Counted from the first letter of the stretch, positions 15,945 to 59,845 are shown. The stretch is 64,000 nt of DNA from an uncultured Bacillota bacterium (GCA_963804645.1 CAWDRG010000009.1:320001-384000), one strand, 5' to 3'. Notes: generated by a model from the sequence alone, not told the origin. Translations and numbers: made by a program.

Positions 15945-17747
15945 TCAAGGGTGCGCGGCCGGCGCGTCGGTCGCGGCGACGGTCACCGGCGTGACGAAGA
16001 TCACCAACTCGGTCTCCTGATGCTGGAACTGGGTGGACCGGAAAAGCGGCCCGATGACGGGGAGATCCCCCAAGACCGGAATCTTCTGGATCAGCTCGGC
16101 GTCTTGGTGCTGAAGCAGCCCCCCGAGCACCAGCGTGTCGGACGGACGCATCGACACGACGGTCTCCACGCGCCGGACGCGCAGGGCCGGAATCGTGAAC
16201 CCGTTGACCTTGATCGCGTTGTCGTAGTCGAGCGTGCTGACCTCGGGCGCGATCCGCATGAACAGCCGGCCGTCTTCCTGCGCGTCCGGGCGCGCGTTCA
16301 GAATGACCCCGAAGTCCTTGTACTCGACGGTCACGGCGCCGTTGTCGCCGGCGACGGGAATCGGGACCTGCCCGCCGAGCAGCAGCGACGCCGAGGTCCC
16401 CGCCATCACAACGAGGTTCGGCTCGGCGAGCAGTTTCGCGCGCCCTTGCTGGGCCAGCGCCTGCAGCTGCGCGATCAGCAGGTCCAGCCCCGCCGTGCCC
16501 AGCCCGGGGGTCGTGATGATCTGGAGATTGTACACGCCGCCGTTCAGCGACGGCGGGAAGCCCGGCGTCTGCTCGCCGCCGCCCCACGTCACCCCCAGGT
16601 TGCGGAGGGCGTTGCGATCGATCTCCACGACCTCCACCTGCAGTTGGAACTGCACCGGTCTGCGCACGGTCAGCAAATTGACGACCGTCGGCGCGAACGC
16701 GCGGGCGATTGCCTCGATCTTCTCACGATCGGCCTGCGTCTCGACCGATCCGCTCAAGACGATCCCGCCGGAGCCCTCCGGTCCGCGCGCCGGGACCGCT
16801 CCGGGCCCGGGCGCCTCCGCCGGAGATCGCGCGGCATCCCGCGATGGCGCCGCGATGGGCGAGGAGAGCGCCGGCGCGTTTGAGTCGAGCGCCGGGGGCG
16901 CGGGCGCGGCGGACGGCGCGGTGAGGGTCGCCCCCTCCGGGCCTCCGCCCGGCACCGCCGTCACCGTCACGGCCGCGGTCGGAACCGTCGTCGAGATGAG
17001 GCGCCGGAGCGCGTCCACGAGTCCCGAGGCCGGCGCGACCTCGACCGCGTACGTCCAGATCCGGCCGGTGCGGTCCCACACGTACATCGTGGTGCGGCCC
17101 TGCGACCGCGCGGTCACCAACAGCTGCTCGGCGCTCACGGGCACGACCCCGAGCACCTGCGGGTCGGCGACGGCCACCCGCACCAGGCCGGCGACGTCGA
17201 GGAGCCGTCCGGCGCCCTCCTCGAGCGTGAGCGCCAGCGCGACGTCCGGCGGCGCCGCGTTCCCGCCGGCCGGCGGCCCGGGCACAGACGCGGCGGGCGC
17301 GACCCGAACGGGCGGCGCGGGGACGTGCGCCGCCGCACGGGGTGCCAGGCGAACCACCAGGTTCGGCCCGTCGAAGGATGCCGCGGTCACCGTCATCGCG
17401 GCCCGCGTCGTGACGTCGATCAGGACGTGGCCGCCGAGCGCGCGCACGCCGACGCCGGTCACCAGCCCGACGTTTATCCGGTGCGACGCGGGTGTCGCGG
17501 CGACCCCATCAAGCGTGATGACGACCCGGTTCCCGCTCGCCGACGTCGCGTAGCGCACCGGAGCGGGCAGCACGACGTGCACGCGGATGCCGTCTCCGTC
17601 CGGCTCCACAATCACGCCGCCGAGCGCCGGGACCGACGCCGCGCGGGCCCGATCCGCCACCGGGGCGGCGCCGGCCACGACCGCCGCGGCCGCCACCGAC
17701 GCGAGGACCGCCCGGAGCACCGAGTTCCGTGAGGGGTGAATAGACAT
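15945..17747 (-). CDS. cpaC: Tad secretin RcpA/CpaC (AMIN-like + N-domain + BON + secretin)
   Basis: 'LAEPNL', 'GGQVPIP', 'EYKDFG', 'KIPVLGDLPVIGPLFRS', 'ETELVIFVTP'; start could alternatively be 17771. Confidence 0.9.
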   Translation of the reverse strand: MSIHPSRNSVLRAVLASVAAAAVVAGAAPVADRARAASVPALGGVIVEPDGDGIRVHVVLPAPVRYATSASGNRVVITLDGVAATPASHRINVGLVTGVGVRALGGHVLIDVTTRAAMTVTAASFDGPNLVVRLAPRAAAHVPAPPVRVAPAASVPGPPAGGNAAPPDVALALTLEEGAGRLLDVAGLVRVAVADPQVLGVVPVSAEQLLVTARSQGRTTMYVWDRTGRIWTYAVEVAPASGLVDALRRLISTTVPTAAVTVTAVPGGGPEGATLTAPSAAPAPPALDSNAPALSSPIAAPSRDAARSPAEAPGPGAVPARGPEGSGGIVLSGSVETQADREKIEAIARAFAPTVVNLLTVRRPVQFQLQVEVVEIDRNALRNLGVTWGGGEQTPGFPPSLNGGVYNLQIITTPGLGTAGLDLLIAQLQALAQQGRAKLLAEPNLVVMAGTSASLLLGGQVPIPVAGDNGAVTVEYKDFGVILNARPDAQEDGRLFMRIAPEVSTLDYDNAIKVNGFTIPALRVRRVETVVSMRPSDTLVLGGLLQHQDAELIQKIPVLGDLPVIGPLFRSTQFQHQETELVIFVTPVTVAATDAPAAHP

Positions 17748-17886
17748 CTGACTATGTATACTTATAGACATCACTCTTCGTTCCGTCAATCCCGAACGTG
17801 CGTCTGCGCCGTGCGCGGCGCGCTCGAAGGGAATGGGTCCGCGCATCACGAAAGGCATCGCCCGACGTCCTCGGAGGGAGGATCTG

Positions 17887-18345
17887 GTGCCGAGCACCTT
17901 CGAGGCCCAGCCCCAAACGATCGTCCTCGCGCTCGCGGTCGCCTGCGTGGTGTTGCTCGCGGCGGTCGTCGCGCTTGTGCTCCGCGACCGCCGCCGCAGA
18001 TCGCCCGTGGTGTCGGCGGACGAAGCACTCCGCGCCGCGTTCGCGGAGATCAACCGCCGGCTTGAGGCGCTCGAGGGGGGCGTGGCCAAGATCACGGCGC
18101 ATCTCCCAAAAACCGTTCAGGGCGTCGGCGTCGTCCGCTACAATCCGTTTCCCGACATGGGCGGCGCGATGAGCTTCAGCCTCGCGCTGCTGGACGGCCG
18201 CGCCAACGGCATCGTGGTGAGCGTGCTGAACAACCGCGACAGCGCGAGGGTCTACGGCAAACCGGTGGAAGCCGGCGAGTCGAGCTACACGCTCTCGGAT
18301 GAAGAGCGGCAGGCACTGGCGCTGGCGCGCGGCCAGCGGCGGTAG
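17887..18345 (+). CDS. DUF4446 family protein
   Basis: N-terminal TM; 'VGVVRYNPFPDMGG.MSFSLALLD..NG.V', 'RVYGKP', 'LS.EE..AL'. Confidence 0.85.
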   Translation: MPSTFEAQPQTIVLALAVACVVLLAAVVALVLRDRRRRSPVVSADEALRAAFAEINRRLEALEGGVAKITAHLPKTVQGVGVVRYNPFPDMGGAMSFSLALLDGRANGIVVSVLNNRDSARVYGKPVEAGESSYTLSDEERQALALARGQRR

Positions 18346-45117: not shown

Positions 45118-46411
45118 GGTAGTGTCAAGTGTTTTGTGTAAATTCCCGTGAGAGAGAGCGCCTCGCCTGCCGGACATTCAGAGCCTGAACGATCGCATAG
45201 ATAATCCGATCACAGCTGGCCACGTTCGTGAAGCACGTCATGGGGCGCGTGCGCCGGCGGACTTCGCGAAACACCCGTTCAATCGCGTTCGTCGTGCGCA
45301 CCCGGCGCCAGTCCGCCTCGTTGACGGCATAGAAGCTGAGCAGAGCGTCCTCCTCGCGCGTCAGACAGGCGACCGCCGCGGGGGCGGTGGCCTGCCAGGC
45401 CTGGACCCACTGGCGCAGGAGGCGGCGCGCGGCGTGGGCGGTCGGCGCCTGATAGATTCGGCGCGCCATGCGCAGACACGCGTCCCGGTCCTTGACCCGC
45501 AGCCGATTGGCCACGTTGCGGAGGACATGGACCCAGCACGCTTGGCGCGGGACGTCCGAATAGACCAAATCGAGGGCGGCATGGAGGCCCCGCTGGCCGT
45601 CCGTCGTAATCAGCTGCAACTGCTTCCCGACTAACCCGCGGCAGGCCAGCGTCGTGAGAAAGGCTTCCCAGGTGGTTTGGGTCTCGTAGCGGGCCAGCCG
45701 GAAGTCGATCAGGTCCCGCTGCCCGGTCGGCCGAATGCCGTAGGCCACGAGAATCAAGCGGCGCTTGCTCCCCGCGAGCCCTTTCACCCGGAGGCTGACG
45801 GCGTCGAGGAACAGATACTGATAGTGATCGTCCAGCGTCCGGTGGTGGAAGGCCGCCGCGGCTTGATCCAAGGCCCGGGTGATCGTCGAGACGGTCGTGG
45901 GGCTCACGACATCGTCGAGGAGCTTGGCGAGGACGGGCCCGACCTGGCGGGTGGAGAGGCCGCCGAGGAAGACCGCGCGGACGAGCGCGTTGACGTCACT
46001 GGTGCGGCGCTGATAGCGGCCGAGCACCGAGGGCTGGAACCCACTCTGGCGGGCCCGGGGAAGATGGAGATCGGGGATGGTGCCCCACGTCGTCACCAAG
46101 CGGCGGCGGTAGACGCCATTCCGATACCCCTGCCGGTCCGGATTCCGAGTGTACCGGCCGGCATTCAGATGGTTGATCAACTCGTCATGCATCCGGTTCT
46201 CCAGCAAGAGCTTGACCGTGCGGAGCGTCTCTCGGGAGACATCCCCCCACAGGGTCGCTTCATCCTTGACCTCCTTCCAGAGATCGGCTACGGTGAGATC
46301 GGTCAGTGGTCGCACACTGGCCATGGGCGTATCCCTCCTTATGGTTGGTCAGGTCGGGGTACGCCCTCTCTTTTCGGGCTCCTGCTTTTACACACAATAC
46401 CGTACACTACC
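45118..46411 (-). mobile_element. IS256-family insertion sequence
   Basis: Imperfect TIRs GGTAGTGTCAAGTGTTTTGTGTAAA and (revcomp) GGTAGTGTACGGTATTGTGTGTAAA; flanking direct repeat GCACCG(G) at 45112 and 46412. Confidence 0.92.
45125..46324 (-). CDS. IS256-family (Mutator-like) DDE transposase
   Basis: YRNG, PR.R..F, GLSTR, YLFLDA, TTDG..GL, QACWVH..RN, RTTNAIER.FRE.RRR. Confidence 0.95.
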   Translation of the reverse strand: MASVRPLTDLTVADLWKEVKDEATLWGDVSRETLRTVKLLLENRMHDELINHLNAGRYTRNPDRQGYRNGVYRRRLVTTWGTIPDLHLPRARQSGFQPSVLGRYQRRTSDVNALVRAVFLGGLSTRQVGPVLAKLLDDVVSPTTVSTITRALDQAAAAFHHRTLDDHYQYLFLDAVSLRVKGLAGSKRRLILVAYGIRPTGQRDLIDFRLARYETQTTWEAFLTTLACRGLVGKQLQLITTDGQRGLHAALDLVYSDVPRQACWVHVLRNVANRLRVKDRDACLRMARRIYQAPTAHAARRLLRQWVQAWQATAPAAVACLTREEDALLSFYAVNEADWRRVRTTNAIERVFREVRRRTRPMTCFTNVASCDRIIYAIVQALNVRQARRSLSREFTQNT

Positions 46412-50025: not shown

Positions 50026-52869
50026 GTGAGCATTGCCCAGCAGCTAGAACGCATCCCGCCCCAAAACCTCGAAGCGGAACAGGGCGTGCTGGGATCGATG
50101 CTGCTCGACCGCGACGCCATCGCCCGCGTTATCGAATCGCTGCGCGCGGAAGATTTCTATCGCGACGCCCACCGTGTGATTTACATGGCGATGACCGAAC
50201 TGTTCGAGCGCGGAGAGCCCGTGGATCTGATCACGGTTACAAACCGCCTCACCGTACAGGGCAAGATCGATGACATCGGCGGCGCCACATACCTTGCGTC
50301 GCTCCCGAACGTCGTCCCCACTGCCGCAAACGTGGACTTCTACGGCAGCATCGTGATGGAAAAATCCATGCTGCGCCAGCTGATCAGTGCCGGCACGCAC
50401 ATCGCCGCGCTTGGGTACGACGCCGCAGACGACGTCGCCGCCCTGATTGACCAGGCCGAAAAGATGGTGTTCGGCATCGCCGCCCGCCGGAATGTTCAAG
50501 ACTTCCAGGCGATCAAGGAGATCCTTAAGGAGAGCTTCGATAAGATCGACAAGCGCTATCAGGAAAAGGGCACCGTCACGGGGGTCGCGACCGGATTCAC
50601 CGACCTCGACATGCTTACCTCCGGTCTCCAAGACTCCGACATGGTGATCGTCGCAGCCCGGCCATCGGTCGGCAAGTGTTTGACCGCCGACGCCGAGATC
50701 CTCCTGGCGGACGGCAGCATCGTCACCATCGGCGAGATCTACCGGCGGCGGCAAGGACGGCTGATGACGCTCGGGAACGACTGGCGATTCCGGTTCACGG
50801 AACCGTCGGCGTTCGTGGACGACGGCCTGAAGCCCGCGTTCCGCGTCACCACCCGGCTCGGACGCCGGGTCGAGACGACGGCGAGCCATCCGTTTCTGAC
50901 GCTCGACGGCTGGCTGCCGCTTGCCGCGCTCCGCACCGGAGACCGCATTGCAGTGCCGCGCCGTCTCAGTGTATTCGGCAACAAACCCATGCGCGAGTGC
51001 GAGGTGAAGCTCCTCGCGTACTTCATCGGAGATGGCTCACTGACAGGCGGCAAGGCCGCATTCACGAACACAGATCCCACCATGCTGCGCGATTTCTCGG
51101 CAGCCGTGCGCGCGTTTGGCGGCGTGCGCTGCCGTCGTGAGCGTGATTGTAGTGGCCGGCGCGCGCCGACGCTCGCCGTCGCAGGGAATCCGATGTTCCG
51201 CCGACAGCAACGCCGCGAGTTCGCCGGGCAGCTTCGTGCGGCGCTGGGGACAGCCCGCGGTGCCCGGGCCAGCCTGGCGCGAGCGCTCGACGTCACCCCG
51301 GCGGCCGTGCTCGGCTGGTGTCGAGGCGAGCAGGTCCCGAAGGCACACCGGTTTGCGCAGTTGTGCGGGGTGGTCGGCGTACCACCCGACCGCCTCGCGC
51401 CGCACGGTTTTCCGCCTGTGAGCCGCAGCAGCCAGAACCCCGTCGTCCTCTGGCTGCAGGCCCTCGGACTCTGGGAAAAGAAGGCGGCGGAGAAGCGGCT
51501 GCCGGCGGCGGTCTTTACACTGCCGAAGGCGCAATCCGCCCTCTTTCTGAACCGGCTGTTCGCAACGGACGGATGGGCCGCGGCGAACGCAGTGACCCGT
51601 TTGGCGCACGTTGGATACGCGTCGAGCAGCGAACATCTCGTGCGGCAGATCCAACATCTGCTGCTTCGCTTTGGGATCGTCGCTTCCGTTCGGAGGCGCA
51701 GTGTCCGCTATCTTCGCGAACTACGCACAGCGTGGGAGCTGTGCATCACGGATCCCGCCTCGATTCGCACGTTTGCCGAGGAGATCGGGATCTTCCGCAA
51801 GGAGCGCAAACTACAGCAGGCGCTCACGGTCGTCGCCCGGCGGGGTCGTATCCCGAATCGCGACACCATCCCGCGAGCGGTATGGCGCACGATGGCTGAC
51901 GCGAAGGGCGCCGAGTCGTGGGCGTCGCTTGCACGGCGCGCTGGCTGGGCGAATACCGGAAACGTCCACGTCGGAGTACGCGCACCGTCGCGAGATCGCC
52001 TCTTGACGTTCGCAACAGCTCTCGCCCACGACGGCTTGCGGCAGCTCGCCCACAGCGACGTGTACTGGGACGAGATCGTGGCGATCGAACCGACGGGCGA
52101 GAAACAAGTCTATGATCTTACGATTCCGGAGACCCACAACTTTGTCGCCAACGACATCTGCGTACACAACACGACCTTTGCGCTCAACATCGCGCAGCAC
52201 GCCGCACTCACCCGCAAGATCCCGGTGGCGATCTTCAGCCTTGAGACGAGCAAGGAGCAGCTGGTCCAGCGCATCCTCTGCTCGGAAGCACAGGTGGACA
52301 ACAGCAAACTCCGCACCGGGTTCCTGGCGGACGAGGACTGGCGCAAACTGGCCCGCGCGATGGGAGGACTCAGCGAAGCCCCCATCTTCATCGATGATTC
52401 GGCGACGCTCTCCGTCATCGAGATGCGGGCAAAAGCCCGGAAGCTCAAGGCCGAGCATGGGCTCGGGCTGATCGTGATCGATTACATCCAGCTCATTCAA
52501 TCGTACCGGCGTACCGAGAACCGCACCCAGGAGCTCAGCGAGATCGCCCGCAACATCAAGTCGCTCGCCAAGGAGCTCGCTATTCCGATCATTGCGATCT
52601 CACAGCTCAGCCGCGCCGTCGAGGCGCTCGGGCAGAAGCGCCCGATGCTGAGCCACCTGCGCGAGAGCGGCGAGATCGAACAGGTGAGCGACCTCGTGCT
52701 GTTTCTCTATCGTGAGGATTACTACGATCAGGAGAAGGCGCACAAGGAGAACAAGGAAAATATCTGCGAGATCATCATCGCCAAGCACCGCAACGGTCCG
52801 ATCGGCACCGTGGAACTGTACTTCCACAAGGAGCACAGTCGGTTCGACAATCTGTCAAAACAACGATAA
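50026..52869 (+). CDS. dnaB: replicative DNA helicase DnaB (intein-containing)
   Basis: PPQNLEAEQ.VLG, AARPSVGK|T Walker A split by the intein, IDYIQL, SQLSR, LRESG.IEQ, AKHRNGP.G. Confidence 0.97.
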   Translation: MSIAQQLERIPPQNLEAEQGVLGSMLLDRDAIARVIESLRAEDFYRDAHRVIYMAMTELFERGEPVDLITVTNRLTVQGKIDDIGGATYLASLPNVVPTAANVDFYGSIVMEKSMLRQLISAGTHIAALGYDAADDVAALIDQAEKMVFGIAARRNVQDFQAIKEILKESFDKIDKRYQEKGTVTGVATGFTDLDMLTSGLQDSDMVIVAARPSVGKCLTADAEILLADGSIVTIGEIYRRRQGRLMTLGNDWRFRFTEPSAFVDDGLKPAFRVTTRLGRRVETTASHPFLTLDGWLPLAALRTGDRIAVPRRLSVFGNKPMRECEVKLLAYFIGDGSLTGGKAAFTNTDPTMLRDFSAAVRAFGGVRCRRERDCSGRRAPTLAVAGNPMFRRQQRREFAGQLRAALGTARGARASLARALDVTPAAVLGWCRGEQVPKAHRFAQLCGVVGVPPDRLAPHGFPPVSRSSQNPVVLWLQALGLWEKKAAEKRLPAAVFTLPKAQSALFLNRLFATDGWAAANAVTRLAHVGYASSSEHLVRQIQHLLLRFGIVASVRRRSVRYLRELRTAWELCITDPASIRTFAEEIGIFRKERKLQQALTVVARRGRIPNRDTIPRAVWRTMADAKGAESWASLARRAGWANTGNVHVGVRAPSRDRLLTFATALAHDGLRQLAHSDVYWDEIVAIEPTGEKQVYDLTIPETHNFVANDICVHNTTFALNIAQHAALTRKIPVAIFSLETSKEQLVQRILCSEAQVDNSKLRTGFLADEDWRKLARAMGGLSEAPIFIDDSATLSVIEMRAKARKLKAEHGLGLIVIDYIQLIQSYRRTENRTQELSEIARNIKSLAKELAIPIIAISQLSRAVEALGQKRPMLSHLRESGEIEQVSDLVLFLYREDYYDQEKAHKENKENICEIIIAKHRNGPIGTVELYFHKEHSRFDNLSKQR
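50677..52170 (+). mobile_element. intein with LAGLIDADG homing endonuclease (498 aa) in the DnaB P-loop
   Basis: CLTAD N-terminus, block B TASHPF, LAYFIGDG and FLNRLFATDG motifs, VYDLTI..THNFVAN...VHN|T C-terminus. Confidence 0.95.
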
Positions 52870-52893
52870 CTACTGCGGCGGCGGAGTAGTAGT

Positions 52894-55121
52894 TGTAGGA
52901 TTCGATCCTATCTTGGCAATATCGAAGATATCTCGACATGGCAATTGTGAGGATATCGTGTGCCAGCGGGTGTTGATCCCAGCGAACGTATTGTGTCGCT
53001 ATCGCGCGCGCTGCGCTGTGGATGGGCGGGCGGCCCGTACGGGCCGCCCGCCCGGTTGACGCTTCGACTACTGTCCGTGCTTTGCCATGGCTTCCTCGAT
53101 CTTCGCTTTCACCGCATCGAGGTTGAAGCTCGCGCCCTTCTGCGCCGGCGGGAACTCGATAGCCGTCATGGCCAGCTTCGCCACTCGCTGTTGGACGAAC
53201 ACGAAGCGCCAGAACTCGAATCTGAACCAGTCGAAGTATTGGTAGGATCCGAGATTTCCGTTCCCTTGTGGCCACGTCGTCTTCTCGAAGGGATCGAGGC
53301 GCAGGTTCACGAGCAGCGGCACGTCCGGGTGGTCCTTGGTACCAATCCAGCCGCCGGGCTGCACGATGAAAGTATATTTGAAGTCGTCGATCCGTACCGC
53401 GGCGAGGTTGCTCTCAGTAAAGTAGAAGATCTCGTTGCGGGCGGATGGCCCCTTGCCGGTGATCAGATCCATCTGATTGTAGCCGTCCAGATGCGTCTTG
53501 TACGTCGTTCCGCCGAGTTGTTTCCCCTTCTTGAGCTCATCGGCGATGTTCGGGTTGCCGGCCGCGGCCACGAAGGTCGCAAACCAATCCTGGCCCGAGA
53601 TGATGCCAGGCTCCACCACGCCGGCGGGGACCTTACCGGGCCAGCGAATCATCGCGGGACAACGGAACCCGCCTTCATAGCCCGTACCTTTGGCACCGTA
53701 AAACGGCGTCTGTCCGCCGTCGGGCCAGGTGAAGCTTTCCGTGCCGTTGTCGGTGGTGAACATGACGATGGTGTTGTCGTCCAGCTCGTTGTCTTTCAAG
53801 TACTGCATGAGCGCGCCGACGCTGTCGTCGAGCTGGGCCATGCCGGCTTCGTGAATGGTCCAGCCGTTCTTCGAATTCTGCAGGGCTTCGTACTTCGGCG
53901 ACAGATGGGTGACGATGTGCATGCGGGTCGGGTTGAACCAGAGGAAAAACGGTTTGCCGGCCGCCTTAGCCTTGTCGACGAACTTGAGGCTGGCCGCGAG
54001 AATTTCGTCGTCCACGGTCTCCATCCGCTTGGGATACAGCGTGCCGGCGTCCTCGATCTTCTGCTTGCCGACCTTGCCCCAGCGCGGCATCACCGTCGGG
54101 TCGTCCGTGTCCGTGGCCCACGAATGGACCATGTTGCGCGGGCCGACCGTGTTCAATAACTCCTGCGGATAGGCGGGGTGGGCGGGGTCCTCCATGGCGT
54201 CGAGGTGGTAGAGATAGCCGAAGAACTCGTCAAAGCCGTGGACCGTGGGCAGGTACTTATTCATGTCGCCCAAGTGGTTCTTCCCGAACTGCCCGGTCGC
54301 GTAGCCCATCTCTTTGAGGGCCGTCGCGATCGTCGGCGCAGAATCCGGCATCCCGACATCCGCCCCCGCCTGGCCGACGGTCGTGAGACCCGTGCGCATC
54401 GGGAGCTGGCCGGTGATGAACGCCGCCCGCCCCGCCGTGCAGCTTGCCTCCCCGTAGTAATCGGTGAACAGCATGCCTTCGCCGGCGAGCTTGTCGAGGT
54501 GCGGCGTCCGCCCGGCCATCATACCTCGATGGTACGCCCCGATATTCCAGATGCCGATGTCATCGGCCATGATCACGACGATGTTTGGTTGTTTTGTCGC
54601 CAACTTCGACCTCCGCAGTCAATTTTGAACCCTCTCCGAGTGAGCGTGATCCCTCGTCGACTGACGGGCACCCTGCTCAGAGCCGTCCGGAACTGCAGTC
54701 ACCCCCTACGGATTCCGTCGTCGGTACGCTAGATCCGTGTGGCTCATGACATGGGCCGTCACGCCACTCGGACGGCCCAACCTGACCGAAAGACACTTGA
54801 AGATCGCTCGAGGGGGAATGACAACACCAAGAAGCACGTGGTGTTGCGTATTTGCATTCCCGATCTGTGCCCGTCGGAGGGGAGCCGGAATTTCCGAGAG
54901 TCTACGGGGAGATTAATGCGGCGGCCGTAGTCCGCCGGACCGAGCGAAGATGCCGGACTGTATGCGCCGATCGCCCTCCGCCAGTTCCCCCCAAGTCTAG
55001 CACTTGGGAAAGCGAATGGCCCATAGGAATTGCTAAGATATCCCGTCTCGAAGGTGCTCTGACGGGCGACTTTTGCCAAGATCTCCCCGGCCGGATTGCT
55101 AAGATAGGATCAAATCCTACA
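52894..55121. mobile_element. cassette 1: TIR-bounded non-autonomous element carrying a sulfatase
   Basis: Left end TGTAGGATTCGATCCTATCTTGGCAAT; right end revcomp TGTAGGATTTGATCCTATCTTAGCAAT; internal 11-bp repeats. Confidence 0.8.
53068..54603 (-). CDS. arylsulfatase (Cys-type, FGly-dependent)
   Basis: PNIVVIMADD, SCTAGRAAFITG, GKNHLG, TTDNG; TTG start with GGAGG RBS. Confidence 0.93.
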   Translation of the reverse strand: MATKQPNIVVIMADDIGIWNIGAYHRGMMAGRTPHLDKLAGEGMLFTDYYGEASCTAGRAAFITGQLPMRTGLTTVGQAGADVGMPDSAPTIATALKEMGYATGQFGKNHLGDMNKYLPTVHGFDEFFGYLYHLDAMEDPAHPAYPQELLNTVGPRNMVHSWATDTDDPTVMPRWGKVGKQKIEDAGTLYPKRMETVDDEILAASLKFVDKAKAAGKPFFLWFNPTRMHIVTHLSPKYEALQNSKNGWTIHEAGMAQLDDSVGALMQYLKDNELDDNTIVMFTTDNGTESFTWPDGGQTPFYGAKGTGYEGGFRCPAMIRWPGKVPAGVVEPGIISGQDWFATFVAAAGNPNIADELKKGKQLGGTTYKTHLDGYNQMDLITGKGPSARNEIFYFTESNLAAVRIDDFKYTFIVQPGGWIGTKDHPDVPLLVNLRLDPFEKTTWPQGNGNLGSYQYFDWFRFEFWRFVFVQQRVAKLAMTAIEFPPAQKGASFNLDAVKAKIEEAMAKHGQ

Positions 55122-55129
55122 CGACGACT

Positions 55130-57122
55130 TGTAGGATGCGATCCTATCTTGACAAAGTCGAAGATATCTCGGTAATGCGTTAGCAATTGCCAAGATATCC
55201 ACGCAGACCTCAATGCGGATCTACGGAATGGGGAGGACGAGAAGAATCGGAAGCGAGGACGGACATAACGAAGAAGAAGGGGGAGCGACCGCCGACATCC
55301 AACGAAATGACGGCCCGGCACCTGGACGTACTCCAGGCGAATCTACCACGGCCGAGAACGGGCGAGTCCCCCGATGAGTGAAGGAAGTGGCTCGATTCCT
55401 ATCGAACGCGAGGCGAACAGAGACAAGACGACTTAAATTAGGCCCCAGCGCCACGAGACTGCCTGATCGGCCCTCACATCGCAGCGCCAGCACGCACTAT
55501 CCGGAGGATCGCGCGATGGATATCACCGTCCAGAACGGCTTGAGCGTTCCCGTGTACAGCTCCGTGGGCCACAGCGACGGCTGGCAGGTGGCCGACCTCC
55601 TGGGGAACACGGCGGGCTTGGTCACGGGCGTTACCGCCTTCGCAGAGGTCTCGGGGTTGGTTACGGTCATCAACGCGATCCAATTGGGAAACGCCGGCTT
55701 GGCCGCGGCGCAGCGGATCCCCGGCATTCTTCAGAAGTTCTGCTTCACCGTGCAGCCGGGCATGAGCCAATCGGCACGCGAGGCCATCGGGATCGCCGAT
55801 CAGTTCCGCGCGAGCTACTGGAACGATCTGTTCGGCGGCAAGAGCCTAGGCGTGTTCATGTCTAATACCGAACACGCCGTGCTGGTCAACGCCAGCACCA
55901 TCACGCCCCGCACGTACCGCGTCGAGGCCAAGGGGGCGCGGGAGGGCGGGTTTCTTCACCGCTGGGGCGAGCCTGGCTACTACTCCACGATGAATACGTC
56001 GGCACCGCCGTCCGTCGTCGCGTTCGGAGGCAAGTATCACATGTTCTTCCGCGACGGCAGCGGCAACGGCATCTTGCACGCCACCTCCGACGAGGGGATC
56101 TACTGGAAGGGCGCGGACCCATTCTATATCGGCGTCAACACCAGCTCCGCGCCGGCACCGGTGGTGTACAACAACCAGGTCTACATCTTCTTCCGCGACG
56201 GAGCGGGCAACGGCATCCTGTATGTCGTCTCCAAGGACGGCTACACGTTTACGGCACCGCAGAACTGGTACATCGGTCTGAATTGTGACGCGCAACCCTC
56301 GGTGACCGTCCACAACGGAGCGCTCCACCTGGTCGCGCGCGACCACGGGGGGGCCGGCGTCATGTACGCGTATCAAACCGCCACGGGATGGCAGCACGGG
56401 TACACGGGAGAGAACACGTCCGCGCCGCCGGCGGTCATCTCGTTCGCGAATCGCCTGCATGTCTTCTATAAGGACGGCGGCGCCAACAACGGCGTATTGC
56501 ACATGGTGTCCGACGACGGCGTCCACTACCGGCGCGCCGACGTCTACCACCCCGACATCACGACAAGCGCGGGACCCTGCCCGTTAGTCTATCGCGGAAA
56601 CCTGCTGCTGCTGTTTCGCGACGGGACGGGAAACGGCGTGCTCTACAGTATCTCCGCCGACGGCACCCAGTTTACCAACCCGCCCGATTGGTACCTGGGA
56701 CTGAACATCGACAACGAACCGTCGGCCGCCGTGCTGGGCGACCACCTCTGCATTCTGGGAAGGGACCCGGGCGGCAACGGGGTAATGTCGCAGGTCCCGG
56801 ACCTCAGTCCTTAGTCCGAGGGGGATCGGATGTGTTCAACACGCCCCGCGCAGACGCTGTTCGTCTGCGCGGGGCGCTGGTTGATCACCACGTCCTACTT
56901 ACAAAAAGAGCTAGACTATCGGCATCCGGAAGAGAGGCTATATCAGCGCGCGCTGCAAACCTGCGGATAACCACGTAATCCCTCGACTTTTATAGGAGCC
57001 CATTATCATGGGCGCGACGATCCGTAGGAATTGCTAAGATATCGCCCCTCCAACGGTCTTTGCCAGGCTACTTTTGCTAAGATATCCCCGGCCAAATTGC
57101 TAAGATAAGATCAAATCCTACA
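55130..57122. mobile_element. cassette 2: TIR-bounded element carrying a beta-propeller protein
   Basis: TGTAGGATGCGATCCTATCTTGACAA ... TTGCTAAGATAAGATCAAATCCTACA; same site spacing as cassette 1. Confidence 0.8.
55516..56814 (+). CDS. hypothetical protein with six ~47-aa repeats (probable beta-propeller)
   Basis: GGAGG RBS; repeats 'NTS.PP.V..F......FFRDG.GNG.L...S.DG..F'. Confidence 0.8.
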   Translation: MDITVQNGLSVPVYSSVGHSDGWQVADLLGNTAGLVTGVTAFAEVSGLVTVINAIQLGNAGLAAAQRIPGILQKFCFTVQPGMSQSAREAIGIADQFRASYWNDLFGGKSLGVFMSNTEHAVLVNASTITPRTYRVEAKGAREGGFLHRWGEPGYYSTMNTSAPPSVVAFGGKYHMFFRDGSGNGILHATSDEGIYWKGADPFYIGVNTSSAPAPVVYNNQVYIFFRDGAGNGILYVVSKDGYTFTAPQNWYIGLNCDAQPSVTVHNGALHLVARDHGGAGVMYAYQTATGWQHGYTGENTSAPPAVISFANRLHVFYKDGGANNGVLHMVSDDGVHYRRADVYHPDITTSAGPCPLVYRGNLLLLFRDGTGNGVLYSISADGTQFTNPPDWYLGLNIDNEPSAAVLGDHLCILGRDPGGNGVMSQVPDLSP

Positions 57123-57131
57123 CTACATGTA

Positions 57132-57213
57132 CGCAGGATCGATCCGATCTTGGCAATTTCAAAGATATCTCGGCAACGTGTTGGCAGTAGCCGAGATACG
57201 ATCAAATCCTGCA
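57132..57213. repeat. empty mini-unit (left end fused to a right terminus)
   Basis: CGCAGGATCGATCCGATCTTGGCAA...TATCTCGGCAA...TAGCCGAGATACGATCAAATCCTGCA. Confidence 0.65.
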
Positions 57214-57348
57214 ACACCCCCCACAGCAGACCGGTTGCTGTGTGTGAACAGCAGATCCTAATAGGTCTTTCCCCCCGTCACTTTGATGCCGGACGCCGAC
57301 ATCGCCATCGACGGCGGGCAGACACCCAGCGTGCGGAGCGGACCGAGA

Positions 57349-59379
57349 ATGGCAGATAAGCACGTGCATCTCACCCAGCGCTTCGCGATAAAGACGACGC
57401 CGGTCTTGCAGGCGCTGTTGATCGTCGCCGCGGGAGTGTGGGTCTTCTATCCTGCTATCCATGGCCAGTGGCTCTGGGATGATGACGTCCTCATTACAAA
57501 CAATCTACTGATCCACGATCCGGCGGGACTCTGGAAGACCTGGTTCGCCCCGACCATGAGTTTGATCGACTACTTCCCGATCACGGTCAGCGTGGAATGG
57601 CTGGCGTGGCGTGCGTGGGGACTGAACACGTTTGGCTACCATCTCACGAGTATCGTGCTGCACCTCACCAGCGCGCTGCTGGTGTGGCGTCTGTTGAGCA
57701 AACTGGGAATCCGGCTGGCGTGGCTGGGCGGACTCCTGTTTGCCATTCACCCGGTGATGGTGGAATCGGTGGCCTGGATCGCAGAACTCAAGAACACCCT
57801 CTCCCTACCTCCATTCCTGATCGCGATGTGCGCGTGGATCGACTACGAGGAACACGGGAAATGGACACACTACTGGCTGGCTCTCGGCCTGTTTCTCGTC
57901 GCGATGCTCTGCAAGACCACGATGGTGATGTTCCCGTTCGTGATCCTGCTCTATGCCTGGTGGAAGCGAGGGCGGATACGGGTCCGGGATCTGACAGGGA
58001 GCGCGCCCTTCTTCGTTGTGTCGCTCGTGCTGGGGCTCACCACGATGTGGTTCTTGCATCATGCGATGGCTCCCCAGGCCGTCCAACTCGGCGGCTTTCT
58101 CTCTCGCGTGGCATGCGCGGGTCTGTCGCTCGCGTTTTATTTCTCCAAGTCCGTGCTGCCCATTGGACTACTCCCGACGTATCCTCAATGGGCGGTCGGT
58201 CGCCCATCGCTGGTACAGTTTCTGCCGTGGCCGATTCTCGGTGGCGTGCTCTACCTATGCTGGGCCAACCGCGCCAGCTGGGGCCGGCATGCATTGCTCG
58301 GGCTCGGCTTCTTTCTCATCAACCTGGCACCTTTTGTGGGATTCACCGCGGCTGCGTACATGGACTTTACCTGGGTCATGGACCACACCCTGTACATTCC
58401 CTTGATTGGCTTAATTGGACTGGCGACGGCGGGGCTGGGCTGGCTCGACGATCGGGTGCCCGCGTCTACCCGGCCCTACGGCATCGGGATGGTCACGGTG
58501 GTGCTGGTCCTCTTGGCCGTCAGCAGCCGTGCGTACGCCGGACTCTACGTCAACCCAGAGACGCTGTGGACGTATACCGTTGAACGCAACTCCGACGCGT
58601 GGCTGGCTTACGATAACCTCGGCTATACGCTCACCAAGGCCGGAAAGTTTACGGAAGCAATCGGAGAATTTGAGCAGGCCCTCCGCATTAATCCCAATTA
58701 TGCCTCCACGCATGACGACCTCGGCACCGCCTTGTTCCGCGTCGGCCGGCTTCGGGAAGCGCAGCGTGAAGTCGAACAGGCCTTGCGGATCGACCCTGAT
58801 TCCGCCACCGCCCACAACAACCTGGCGACCATTCTGGTGCACCTCGGACGAATCCCAGAAGCCATTCAACAATTTCAGGCCGCCGTGCGGATCAATCCCA
58901 ATGATGCCGAGGCGCACAACGGCATGGGTACTGCCCTGGTCCAGAACGGTCAGTATGCGGATGCGGTGGAAGAATTCGAAGCGGCCTTGCAAATCAATCC
59001 TGATTTTTCCGAGGTCCACGACAACCTGGGGGCCATGCTCGCCCACTTCGGACAAATCCCCGAGGCCATTGAACAATTTCAGGCCGCCGTGCGGATCAAT
59101 CCCAATGATGCCGAGGCGCACTACGACATGGGGTTCGCCTTGACCCAGACCGGCCGGGATGAGGACGCCTTGGAAGAATTCGAAGCGGCCGTGCGGATCA
59201 ATCCCGATTTTGCCGAGGCTCACAACAATCTGGGGGTCATTCTGGCACGCCGCGGACGTATCCCAGAGGCCATTCAGCAATTTCAGGCCGCTGTGCAGAT
59301 CAATCCCAATTACACTGAGGCGCGACGTAATCTGACCCGCGTGCTCAATCGCGAGAAGACCTCTCCGCCCAGGCGCTAA
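57349..59379 (+). CDS. TMTC-like membrane protein (GT-C-like domain + about 8 TPRs)
   Basis: WLWDDD motif, 'GYHLTS..LH', 'LFAIHP..VESVAWI.E.K', C-terminal TPR array with DNA-level repeats. Confidence 0.85.
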   Translation: MADKHVHLTQRFAIKTTPVLQALLIVAAGVWVFYPAIHGQWLWDDDVLITNNLLIHDPAGLWKTWFAPTMSLIDYFPITVSVEWLAWRAWGLNTFGYHLTSIVLHLTSALLVWRLLSKLGIRLAWLGGLLFAIHPVMVESVAWIAELKNTLSLPPFLIAMCAWIDYEEHGKWTHYWLALGLFLVAMLCKTTMVMFPFVILLYAWWKRGRIRVRDLTGSAPFFVVSLVLGLTTMWFLHHAMAPQAVQLGGFLSRVACAGLSLAFYFSKSVLPIGLLPTYPQWAVGRPSLVQFLPWPILGGVLYLCWANRASWGRHALLGLGFFLINLAPFVGFTAAAYMDFTWVMDHTLYIPLIGLIGLATAGLGWLDDRVPASTRPYGIGMVTVVLVLLAVSSRAYAGLYVNPETLWTYTVERNSDAWLAYDNLGYTLTKAGKFTEAIGEFEQALRINPNYASTHDDLGTALFRVGRLREAQREVEQALRIDPDSATAHNNLATILVHLGRIPEAIQQFQAAVRINPNDAEAHNGMGTALVQNGQYADAVEEFEAALQINPDFSEVHDNLGAMLAHFGQIPEAIEQFQAAVRINPNDAEAHYDMGFALTQTGRDEDALEEFEAAVRINPDFAEAHNNLGVILARRGRIPEAIQQFQAAVQINPNYTEARRNLTRVLNREKTSPPRR

Positions 59380-59720
59380 GGCCTCTCAGATGTGGAGATA
59401 CGCCCGCTGAAACGGTGGGGCCAGAGGCCCGACAAGCGAGTGAATTCCCAGATCACTGAGGCCAGGCGACGCCCCGTAGGAATCGTTGAGATAGCCCCCG
59501 TGCCCCGCGAAGTTGCGTGGCGCGTCACAACGCGCAAGCAAGGGCAGAATGCCCGAATTCGCGCGAGAAAAGTGGGCCAAAGTATGAGTGATCGTTGAGG
59601 TCATTTGGCCCGCGTTGGCACCGCCGGGTGTGCGGGCTTTCTCGCTCCGCTCGGGGCGCTGGCCCGTTGAGCACGTCCGAAGCTCGATTCCACTGATAGA
59701 TGGGGGCGTGGGACACCCCG

Positions 59721-59845
59721 AAGGAATTGCTAGGATAGGCCCCGTTCGAAGACACCGCGTCGGACGCTCTTGCCAAGTTACGATCAGATCCTACAGCTAT
59801 AGTAGCAATACCGAAACAATGTCATGGCAACCGCCAACATATCCT
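59721..59845. repeat. degenerate cassette junction (right end at 59795 + remnant left end)
   Basis: TTGCTAGGATA (59727), TTGCCAAGTTA (59770), CGATCAGATCCTACA ending 59795, then TATAGTAGCAATACCGAA...CATGGCAACCGCCAACATATCC. Confidence 0.7.

Follow-up and report, generated by a model that had tools for sequence, protein, structure and literature searches.

The combination of TGT...ACA tips and a single site repeated several times at intervals is the signature of RNase-H-fold transposases, as seen in Mu, Tn7 (TnsB) and IS21 (IstA), and target duplications in the IS21 family span 4-8 bp. Here, an array of gene cassettes with ends of this type is described from the region directly behind dnaB in an uncultured peat bacterium, at positions 52894-59845 of a 64,000-nucleotide stretch of DNA (the window). 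The terminal repeats of IS21 contain, according to PMC10122671, at least two direct repeats (L1/L2 and R1/R2), both of which are needed, and a terminal CA. A table in PMC3281130 gives direct repeats of 8, 8 and 7 bp for members of the IS21 family. Cassettes devoid of a transposase are thought, according to passages in PMC3129680 and PMC3281130, to be mobilised by a cognate transposase in trans. Tandem islands at att sites have been described for Tn7-like elements (PMC11014353).

We read 52894-59845, with moderate confidence, as three or four non-autonomous cassettes (mobile insertion cassettes, MICs, together with one miniature relic), stacked head to tail and moved in trans by a DDE transposase. 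The tips, the spaced sites, the IS21 geometry and the precedent of the MICs all led to this assignment as a derivative, of the MIC type or of the miniature inverted-repeat transposable element (MITE) type, of an IS21-like (or Mu/Tn7-like) element. The family of transposase-less cassettes is real and apparently undescribed. An earlier note, made from the sequence alone, had proposed a candidate undescribed gene-capture or Tn7-like system at this locus. Its non-autonomous cassettes with TGT...ACA ends and site arrays, stacked behind dnaB, are supported by the present results. The Tn7-like membership proposed there is not supported as stated. The geometry agrees with IS21-family ends no less well than with TnsB-type ends. 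An undescribed gene-capture system may exist here, but the enzyme that would demonstrate it was not found.

Ends and sites of the array

Each unit was bordered by two inverted ends, 5′-TGTAGGATT...AATCCTACA-3′, rather than by direct repeats. The 27-bp inverted end TGTAGGATTYGATCCTATCTTRGCAAT was detected at 52894 (+), 55095-55121 (−), 55130 (+) and 57096-57122 (−) with 0, 0, 3 and 1 mismatches, respectively, and had no match in any of 100 shuffled sequences. By using a looser 26-mer version of the end, an extra match was obtained at 59770-59795 (−), and all five matches in the assembly of the source genome (G000; 5.3 Mb in 22 contigs, 96.8% complete, with the window on contig C9) were located in the array. 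The 11-bp site TTGCYAAGATA occurred seven times in exact form in this genome, each time inside the locus (7/7), and 13 of the 36 occurrences with one mismatch were found there too. The ends are thus not a generic repeat scattered through the genome, an option that the earlier note had left standing, because the motif is confined to the locus.

The right ends are extended and carry, from the innermost position to the tip, the sites C, B and A with spacings of 43 and then 23 bp; site A stops 15 nt short of the terminal A. Read inwards from the tip, TGTAGGATT is followed by site A, by B after +23 bp and by C after a further +43 bp, so that the sites begin ~16, ~39 and ~82 bp from the tip (16-17 and 39-40 for A and B). 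The left ends are compact, with direct sites beginning ~16 and ~36 bp from the tip (spacing 20) and one inverted third site thereafter. All intact ends in G000 read TGTAGGA...TCCTACA, and 5′-TG...CA-3′ termini are thereby present. Mismatches to the end consensus grow with distance from dnaB, from 0 + 0 in the first unit and 3 + 1 in the second to mutated tips and, finally, to 2 mismatches with a lost site and a truncated partner end. This gradient of decay fits repeated orientation-specific insertion beside dnaB, with older units moved outward. The GC content of the cassettes was 0.58-0.64 compared to 0.687 for the contig. In single-strand folding the junctions formed hairpins (z about −4), which do not discriminate between models because any inverted repeat must fold in this way. 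The features of dnaB and the array are as follows.

50026..52869, plus strand: dnaB, 947 aa (Pfam DnaB, DnaB_C, Intein_splicing and LAGLIDADG_3); its 3′ end is the insertion hot spot
52870..52893, plus strand: flank of the dnaB stop, an inverted repeat AACTACT...AGTAGTT terminating in GTAGTAGT (52886-52893), the candidate target
52894..52961, plus strand: left (compact) end L1, tip TGTAGGATT, direct sites at 52909 and 52929, degenerate inverted site near 52945
53068..54603, minus strand: cargo 1, sulfatase (Pfam Sulfatase, E 5e-51)
55017..55121, plus strand: right (extended) end R1, sites C 55030, B 55073 and A 55096, tip ...ATCCTACA, profile score 88.5 bits
55122..55129, no strand: spacer between R1 and L2, 8 bp, CGACGACT
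55130..55200, plus strand: left end L2, sites at 55145 and 55165, inverted site at 55187
55378..56814, plus strand: cargo 2, propeller-like protein (weak BNR_2 match; internal repeats D5 and D15)
57018..57122, plus strand: right end R2, sites at 57031, 57074 and 57097, profile score 88.8 bits
57123..57131, no strand: spacer after R2, CTACATGTA, 8-9 bp, its length uncertain because the next terminus is degenerate
57132..57213, plus strand: degenerate left end L3, CGCAGGAT..., sites at 57146 and 57166, inverted site at 57188, terminus-like ...ATCCTGCA, mutated tips CGC and TGC, repeat families D4 and D8
57283..59379, plus strand: cargo 3, PMT_2 glycosyltransferase-like N-terminus followed by TPR repeats (Pfam)
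59466..59525, plus strand: relic of a right-end site C (site 59466-59499), repeat family D6, profile E 0.0012
59715..59795, plus strand: right end R4, sites C 59727 and A 59770, devoid of site B
59796..59845, plus strand: distal edge of the array, 8-bp flank GCTATAGT followed by a truncated left-end relic (59804-59845, inner sites only)

Beyond the array follow an S15 peptidase gene and then a HAD hydrolase gene. All positions of the end and of the 11-bp sites given in the earlier note hold, as do their spacings, and the cargo named there (a sulfatase, a propeller protein, a TPR protein and hydrolases beyond) was confirmed by Pfam, the TPR protein being a PMT_2 and TPR fusion. The unit said to hold nothing is represented by 57132-57213, which may be an empty 82-bp miniature element with mutated tips or may belong to the TPR unit as its left end. 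Missed in that note were the relic site C at 59466-59499, the truncated left-end relic at 59804-59845 and an IS256 transposase at 45128-46324.

All seven unit-unit junctions consisted of a right end followed by a left end (head-to-tail). G000 accounts for three of these, and the others come singly from G007:C189, G010:C148, G002:C105 and G010:C58. Four of the junction spacers measured 8, 8-9, 8 and 7 bp and two measured 30-50 bp; the seventh, in G000, was 8 bp long and followed by a truncated left end.

Conservation of the ends among relatives

Based on a profile built from five extended ends, relatives of the ends were detected in 8 of the 23 genomes of the same family (f1, G000 counted) and in none of 71 genomes from the other families of the order, a count that takes in the unpublished G034. 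The 14 extended ends from these eight genomes aligned nearly without gaps. Blocks C, B and A with ATCCTACA were kept and the 43/23 spacing was fixed, while the intervening DNA was divergent, as had been claimed for the array itself. Sites A and B were 23 bp apart in 13/14 extended ends, the exception being R4, which has no B. The tip ATCCTACA was near-invariant with a CCTACA finish in 10 of the 14, and the remaining tips were degenerate.

Two dialects of the site were identified, TTGCYAAGATA and TGGCCAA[CG]TA, and every one of the 14 ends used a single dialect throughout all its sites. The former was found in G000, in G011, in one end of G007 and in a relic in G003. The latter was the commoner one and was found in G001, G002, G006, G007 and G010. 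Such concordance is the pattern expected of binding sites that co-evolve with one protein.

The ends had no counterpart among described elements in the genome, metagenome, viral and plasmid collections searched. An exact-pattern scan with the G000-type end gave no match in public genome contigs and none in viral contigs, a BLAST search of two junctions against plasmids gave nothing, and no published description of these ends was found in the literature. Five metagenome-contig matches to the G000-type end were dismissed as chance, being lone sites in DNA of 42-50% GC and devoid of a site array. Matches to the commoner dialect in two Chloroflexota metagenome-assembled genomes (MAGs) and two viral sequences were likewise lone sites lacking the three-site architecture.

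In G010, two right ends (L087:1-233 and L088:8780-9121) had 236 bp in common at 91% identity, extending past the 105-bp conserved end, and the assembly breaks there.

Gene content behind dnaB

The first gene or genes past dnaB differed in nearly all of 15 relatives, and the comparison suggested in the earlier note thus revealed variable cargo at this site. The genes found there were those for an arginase, a creatininase, a PIN toxin, a permease, DUF1801, Crp, RibD_C, LigD, a luciferase-like enzyme, AHSA1 and Ysc84. Of the 17 genomes readable past the dnaB stop, 8 had end-like sequence there and 9 had none. Clear cases were G000, G006, G015 and G021; in G001, G002, G003 and G010 the sequence was partial or lay nearby. 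The dnaB contig of G007 ends 4 bp past the stop. In the four clear cases the compact end points toward dnaB. The orientation is thus fixed, and insertion lies 4-38 bp past the stop codon. Apparently empty sites in the genus of G015 read TAATTAGTAGCGG (G017) and TAACGTAGTCC (G013). The sequence GTAGTAGT or its complement adjoins ends in G000, G010, G001:C69 and G007:C189. A comparison of the spacers beside the S15 peptidase gene in G000 and G006 gave no common relic.

Copies of the ends were also found away from dnaB, with ordinary cargo. Across the eight genomes the same ends border different cargo at different loci, and the cargo is unrelated from unit to unit and from genome to genome; in an all-against-all BLASTP comparison of 283 open reading frames (ORFs) near ends, no recurrent unknown protein was detected. 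Miniature forms without cargo were ~82 bp long in G000 (the candidate described above) and ~117 bp in G006. The cargo occurs on both strands (the sulfatase gene on the minus strand), its orientation relative to the ends is not fixed, and the cassettes must therefore carry their own promoters. The cassette directly past dnaB in G001 (L056:563-982) contained a gene for a PIN-domain (VapC-like) protein, and toxin-antitoxin modules are thus among the cargo.

Variants in peat metagenomes

Parts of the array were recovered at or near identity from peat metagenomes of two studies and from a bioreactor study. One metagenome contig runs without any change from R2 through the spacer and the degenerate unit. 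Neither excision or circle junctions nor empty sites were seen in the metagenome contigs, which at about 400 bp and a depth of 3-5 are too short and shallow to show them, and the lack of circle junctions is for this reason uninformative.

Two variants were noted in these data. A peat-metagenome variant (run X4) lacked 59461-59702, between the relic site C and the next site C, and resembles a deletion/duplication polymorphism between repeats. In one low-depth contig (run X1) the R1 tip at 55121 was joined to mid-R2 at 57070 via 11 unrelated letters. Cassette 2 is skipped in this contig, which does not represent precise excision.

Proposed mechanism and search for the enzyme

The history of the array may be depicted as follows. 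One transposase would recognise the repeated putative binding sites of each end and would mobilise the units in trans. This enzyme, of the RNase-H-fold (DDE, rve-type) class and not encoded in the assembly, would most likely be IS21-like (IstA with an IstB-type ATPase) or of a related Mu/Tn7 type. Insertion would be site- and orientation-specific, into a GTAGTAGT-like target right past the dnaB stop and with the compact end toward dnaB. Each newcomer would settle beside dnaB, older units being shifted outward to decay, and the 7-9-bp spacers may be drifted target duplications. The cassettes bear ordinary accessory genes, and the locus would thus be a family-wide variable site of gene accretion.

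A resident IS21 element is present on contig C22 of G000, with a copy in G006. Its tips are TGTTGATT and TGTAGATTC, and a repeat occurs twice in direct orientation at a spacing of 23 bp, the copies beginning ~15 and ~38 bp from the tip.

Several results weigh against mobilisation by an IS21-like transposase in trans. No cognate transposase was found, and the site motif was not present elsewhere in G000, so that no master copy exists in the 96.8%-complete assembly. Among 138 ORFs near ends or past dnaB in relatives (66 + 49 + 15 + 8), none had a transposase or recombinase domain. Searches by tblastn with IstA and IstB of G000 matched only IS21 copies whose sites are unrelated, none of them near any end, although the absence of istA and istB is not proven because the assemblies are fragmented MAGs. 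The likeness to IS21 lies in the geometry and a 9-10-nt tip, and not in the sequence of the sites, and the resident IS21 copy in G006 displayed no clear target duplication. The IS21 family is not known for orientation-specific insertion, yet the junctions are all head-to-tail. The octamer GTAGTAGT occurs 108 times in G000 with one occurrence occupied and is hence not the sole determinant of the target. Identical flanking duplications were not present at any unit, spacers and flanks agreeing at 2-5 of 8 positions, a level that fits drifted duplications and unrelated coupling sequences alike.

Candidate enzymes were considered and rejected as follows. The rve matches in G000 belonged to IS21, IS481-like and multi-copy insertion sequence (IS) elements, all with other ends. 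The transposase of the IS256 element in the window was rejected as the mobiliser since its repeats are unrelated, and the ORFs of the window contained no recombinase. On a 5.6-kb contig of G021 (C28, L128), a 486-aa rve protein, a 281-aa AAA_22 protein and AAA_25 form a Tn552/Tn5053-like set. The cassette ends are not on that contig, and the module is considered an unlinked candidate for a trans-acting enzyme. Walking from the assembly-broken ends in G010 and G006 to adjoining contigs revealed only further ordinary cargo.

An IS of 1.42 kb with a 451-aa weak-rve transposase was noted in five near-identical copies, including one at G000:C9:313229-315981, about 5 kb before the window. Each of its ends has two repeats of ~23 bp, which terminate in TCTTAC.

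Alternative explanations

Accretion by a tyrosine recombinase would also yield such an array, and is in our judgement unlikely. The junctions, composed of right arm, TCCTACA, 7-9 bp, TGTAGGA and left arm, would then be attP-like sites, with inverted cores enclosing an overlap or coupling sequence and arm-type sites to either side, and circular cassettes would integrate there beside dnaB; Tn916 and CTnDOT exemplify site-specific recombination that tolerates unlike overlaps. The head-to-tail order of 7/7 junctions is what accretion gives, and spacers of 7-9 bp between perfect inverted 7-mers have the typical length of an overlap. The spacers also differ from each other in sequence, like coupling sequences, the site arrays on the two arms are asymmetric and no target duplication was observed. 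However, no integrase adjoins any copy, and none of the 11 Phage_integrase matches in G000 is located on contig C9. A core half-site is missing ahead of the first spacer, and the arms repeat the sequence of the site within the terminal repeat, which is the pattern of transposase ends. The TGT...ACA tips and the 16/39-bp geometry agree with the ends of the resident IS21, and DDE families typically include miniature forms with two ends. Tandem islands resembling cis-mobilisable elements (CIMEs) are contradicted by borders that are inverted and not direct att-core repeats, and by the lack of an integrase in or near the units. An occurrence of GATCCTACA beside an integrase on contig C2 was rejected, being merely the start-codon region of the integrase.

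Quite improbable, in our estimate, is a dedicated accretion platform common to the family, in which a chromosomal or episomal IS21- or Tn7-like DDE transposase with its own target selector would insert single-gene cassettes one-way at the dnaB 3′ end, and in which the junctions would mimic minicircles and be reusable for excision and shuffling. If true, the platform would be a transposase-driven functional analogue of the integron.

Still less probable are true Tn7-like elements, that is, miniature derivatives of a TnsB/TnsC/TniQ transposon with a TniQ/TnsD-type selector reading the dnaB 3′ end, stacked as at attTn7. In their favour are insertion 4-38 bp past the stop of a conserved essential gene, in fixed orientation and with the compact end toward the gene, the TGT/ACA tips with asymmetric site arrays, and the tandem islands described at att sites of Tn7-like elements. 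Against them, spacers of 7-9 bp are found where 5-bp direct repeats at the ends would be expected, with none of the latter at any end, and no tnsABC or tniQ gene was found in or near the copies. TniQ was detected in 0/23 genomes of the family, with control genomes also blank and hence no positive control, and Mu-transpos_C was not detected in the one genome searched (G000), likewise without a control match. Matches to TniB were rejected as Clp-type ATPases, and the rve ORFs across the family were all ≤555 aa and belonged to other IS types. Tn7-like elements display strong target immunity against a second copy, as related in parts of PMC11014353, and copies of the cassettes occur away from dnaB too. 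The main text of a survey of target selectors (PMC10293859), its supplements aside, has no mention of dnaB in the portions consulted, and no literature was found that links a Tn7-like attachment site with dnaB.

Very improbable is the explanation that the repeats are not mobile units at all but arrays of operators or insulators, serving a DNA-binding regulator, that happen to lie between accessory genes, for although the sites hold TTGACA/TTGGCA-like hexamers (in L2, TTGACA, 17 nt and GGTAAT directed into its own cassette) and no enzyme was found, the motif is confined to this locus in the genome, the ends are paired in inverted orientation whether unrelated genes or no genes lie between them, the same ends enclose different cargo at different loci in eight genomes, cargo orientation is not fixed relative to them and the gene content past dnaB turns over between species.

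Other features of the window

The DnaB intein, whose presence accounts for the length of 947 aa, includes a homing-endonuclease domain of the LAGLIDADG type, and HTH_31 is matched weakly. The open frames of dnaB in relatives range from about 460 to about 1490 aa, and intein content therefore varies. An IS256-family insertion sequence is located at 45118-46411 between ychF and rpsF, with Transposase_mut at 45128-46324 on the minus strand; its ends are 25-bp inverted repeats beginning GGTAGTG and unrelated to the cassette ends. Past the sulfatase gene, at 53025-53065, a GC-rich hairpin gave a sub-threshold match to the Rfam model 'Transposase-2 RNA' (21 bits vs 42.7) and is probably a terminator. 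A secretin gene (type II/III secretion family) is located at 15948-18095 among many adjoining ORFs without a Pfam family, and an outer membrane is consequently probable in this organism.

Comparison with known systems

If mobilisation in trans by a DDE transposase holds, the locus would represent a cassette system that is compact and specific in orientation, that has a defined safe harbour past an essential gene and whose end code is simple, with three spaced sites in at least two dialects. Systems of this kind are sought on two accounts: uncultured soil bacteria may gain genes through them in nature, and tools for site-specific insertion may be derived from them. Cassettes devoid of a transposase can dominate a hot spot over long evolutionary time, and are overlooked by annotation pipelines.

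The array resembles an integron in being a chromosomal array of single-gene cassettes, of which the newest is apparently nearest the fixed site, as judged by the gradient of decay. It differs in the absence of an adjoining intI, in having two transposon-type ends per cassette and not one attC, and in cargo on both strands, the cassettes of integrons being co-oriented and mostly promoterless. The integron-like character proposed in the earlier note is on these grounds not upheld. An Rfam scan gave nothing relevant, a search with an attC-specific model not having been made.

With Tn7-like elements the cassettes have in common the TGT/ACA tips, asymmetric multiple sites, insertion in one orientation past a conserved gene and the accretion of islands. 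They differ in spacers of 7-9 bp as opposed to 5 bp, in a single gene per unit and in that no tnsA, tnsB, tnsC or tniQ was found; the units also abut, despite the target immunity described for Tn7-like elements in the relevant part of PMC11014353.

The likeness to IS21 consists of TG...CA tips, a terminal repeat of ~50 bp with two direct repeats at 23-bp spacing and near-equal offsets, and a nearly identical tip, TGTAG(G)ATTC. In contrast to IS21, the cassettes have no associated istA/istB and carry cargo in place of a transposase, their sites bear no relation in sequence to those of the resident IS21, a third site is located 43 bp further in with an inverted third site at the other end, and they are strictly head-to-tail at one chromosomal site.

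The MICs and MITEs, finally, resemble the cassettes in having IS-type inverted ends around passenger genes or around nothing, without a transposase, and this holds in the relatives too. The cassettes differ from them in that no cognate IS was found in the genome, and in stacking in one orientation at a single att-like site conserved across the family. The kind of element is thus a known one, and it is the family of ends and the combination of features that appear to be new.

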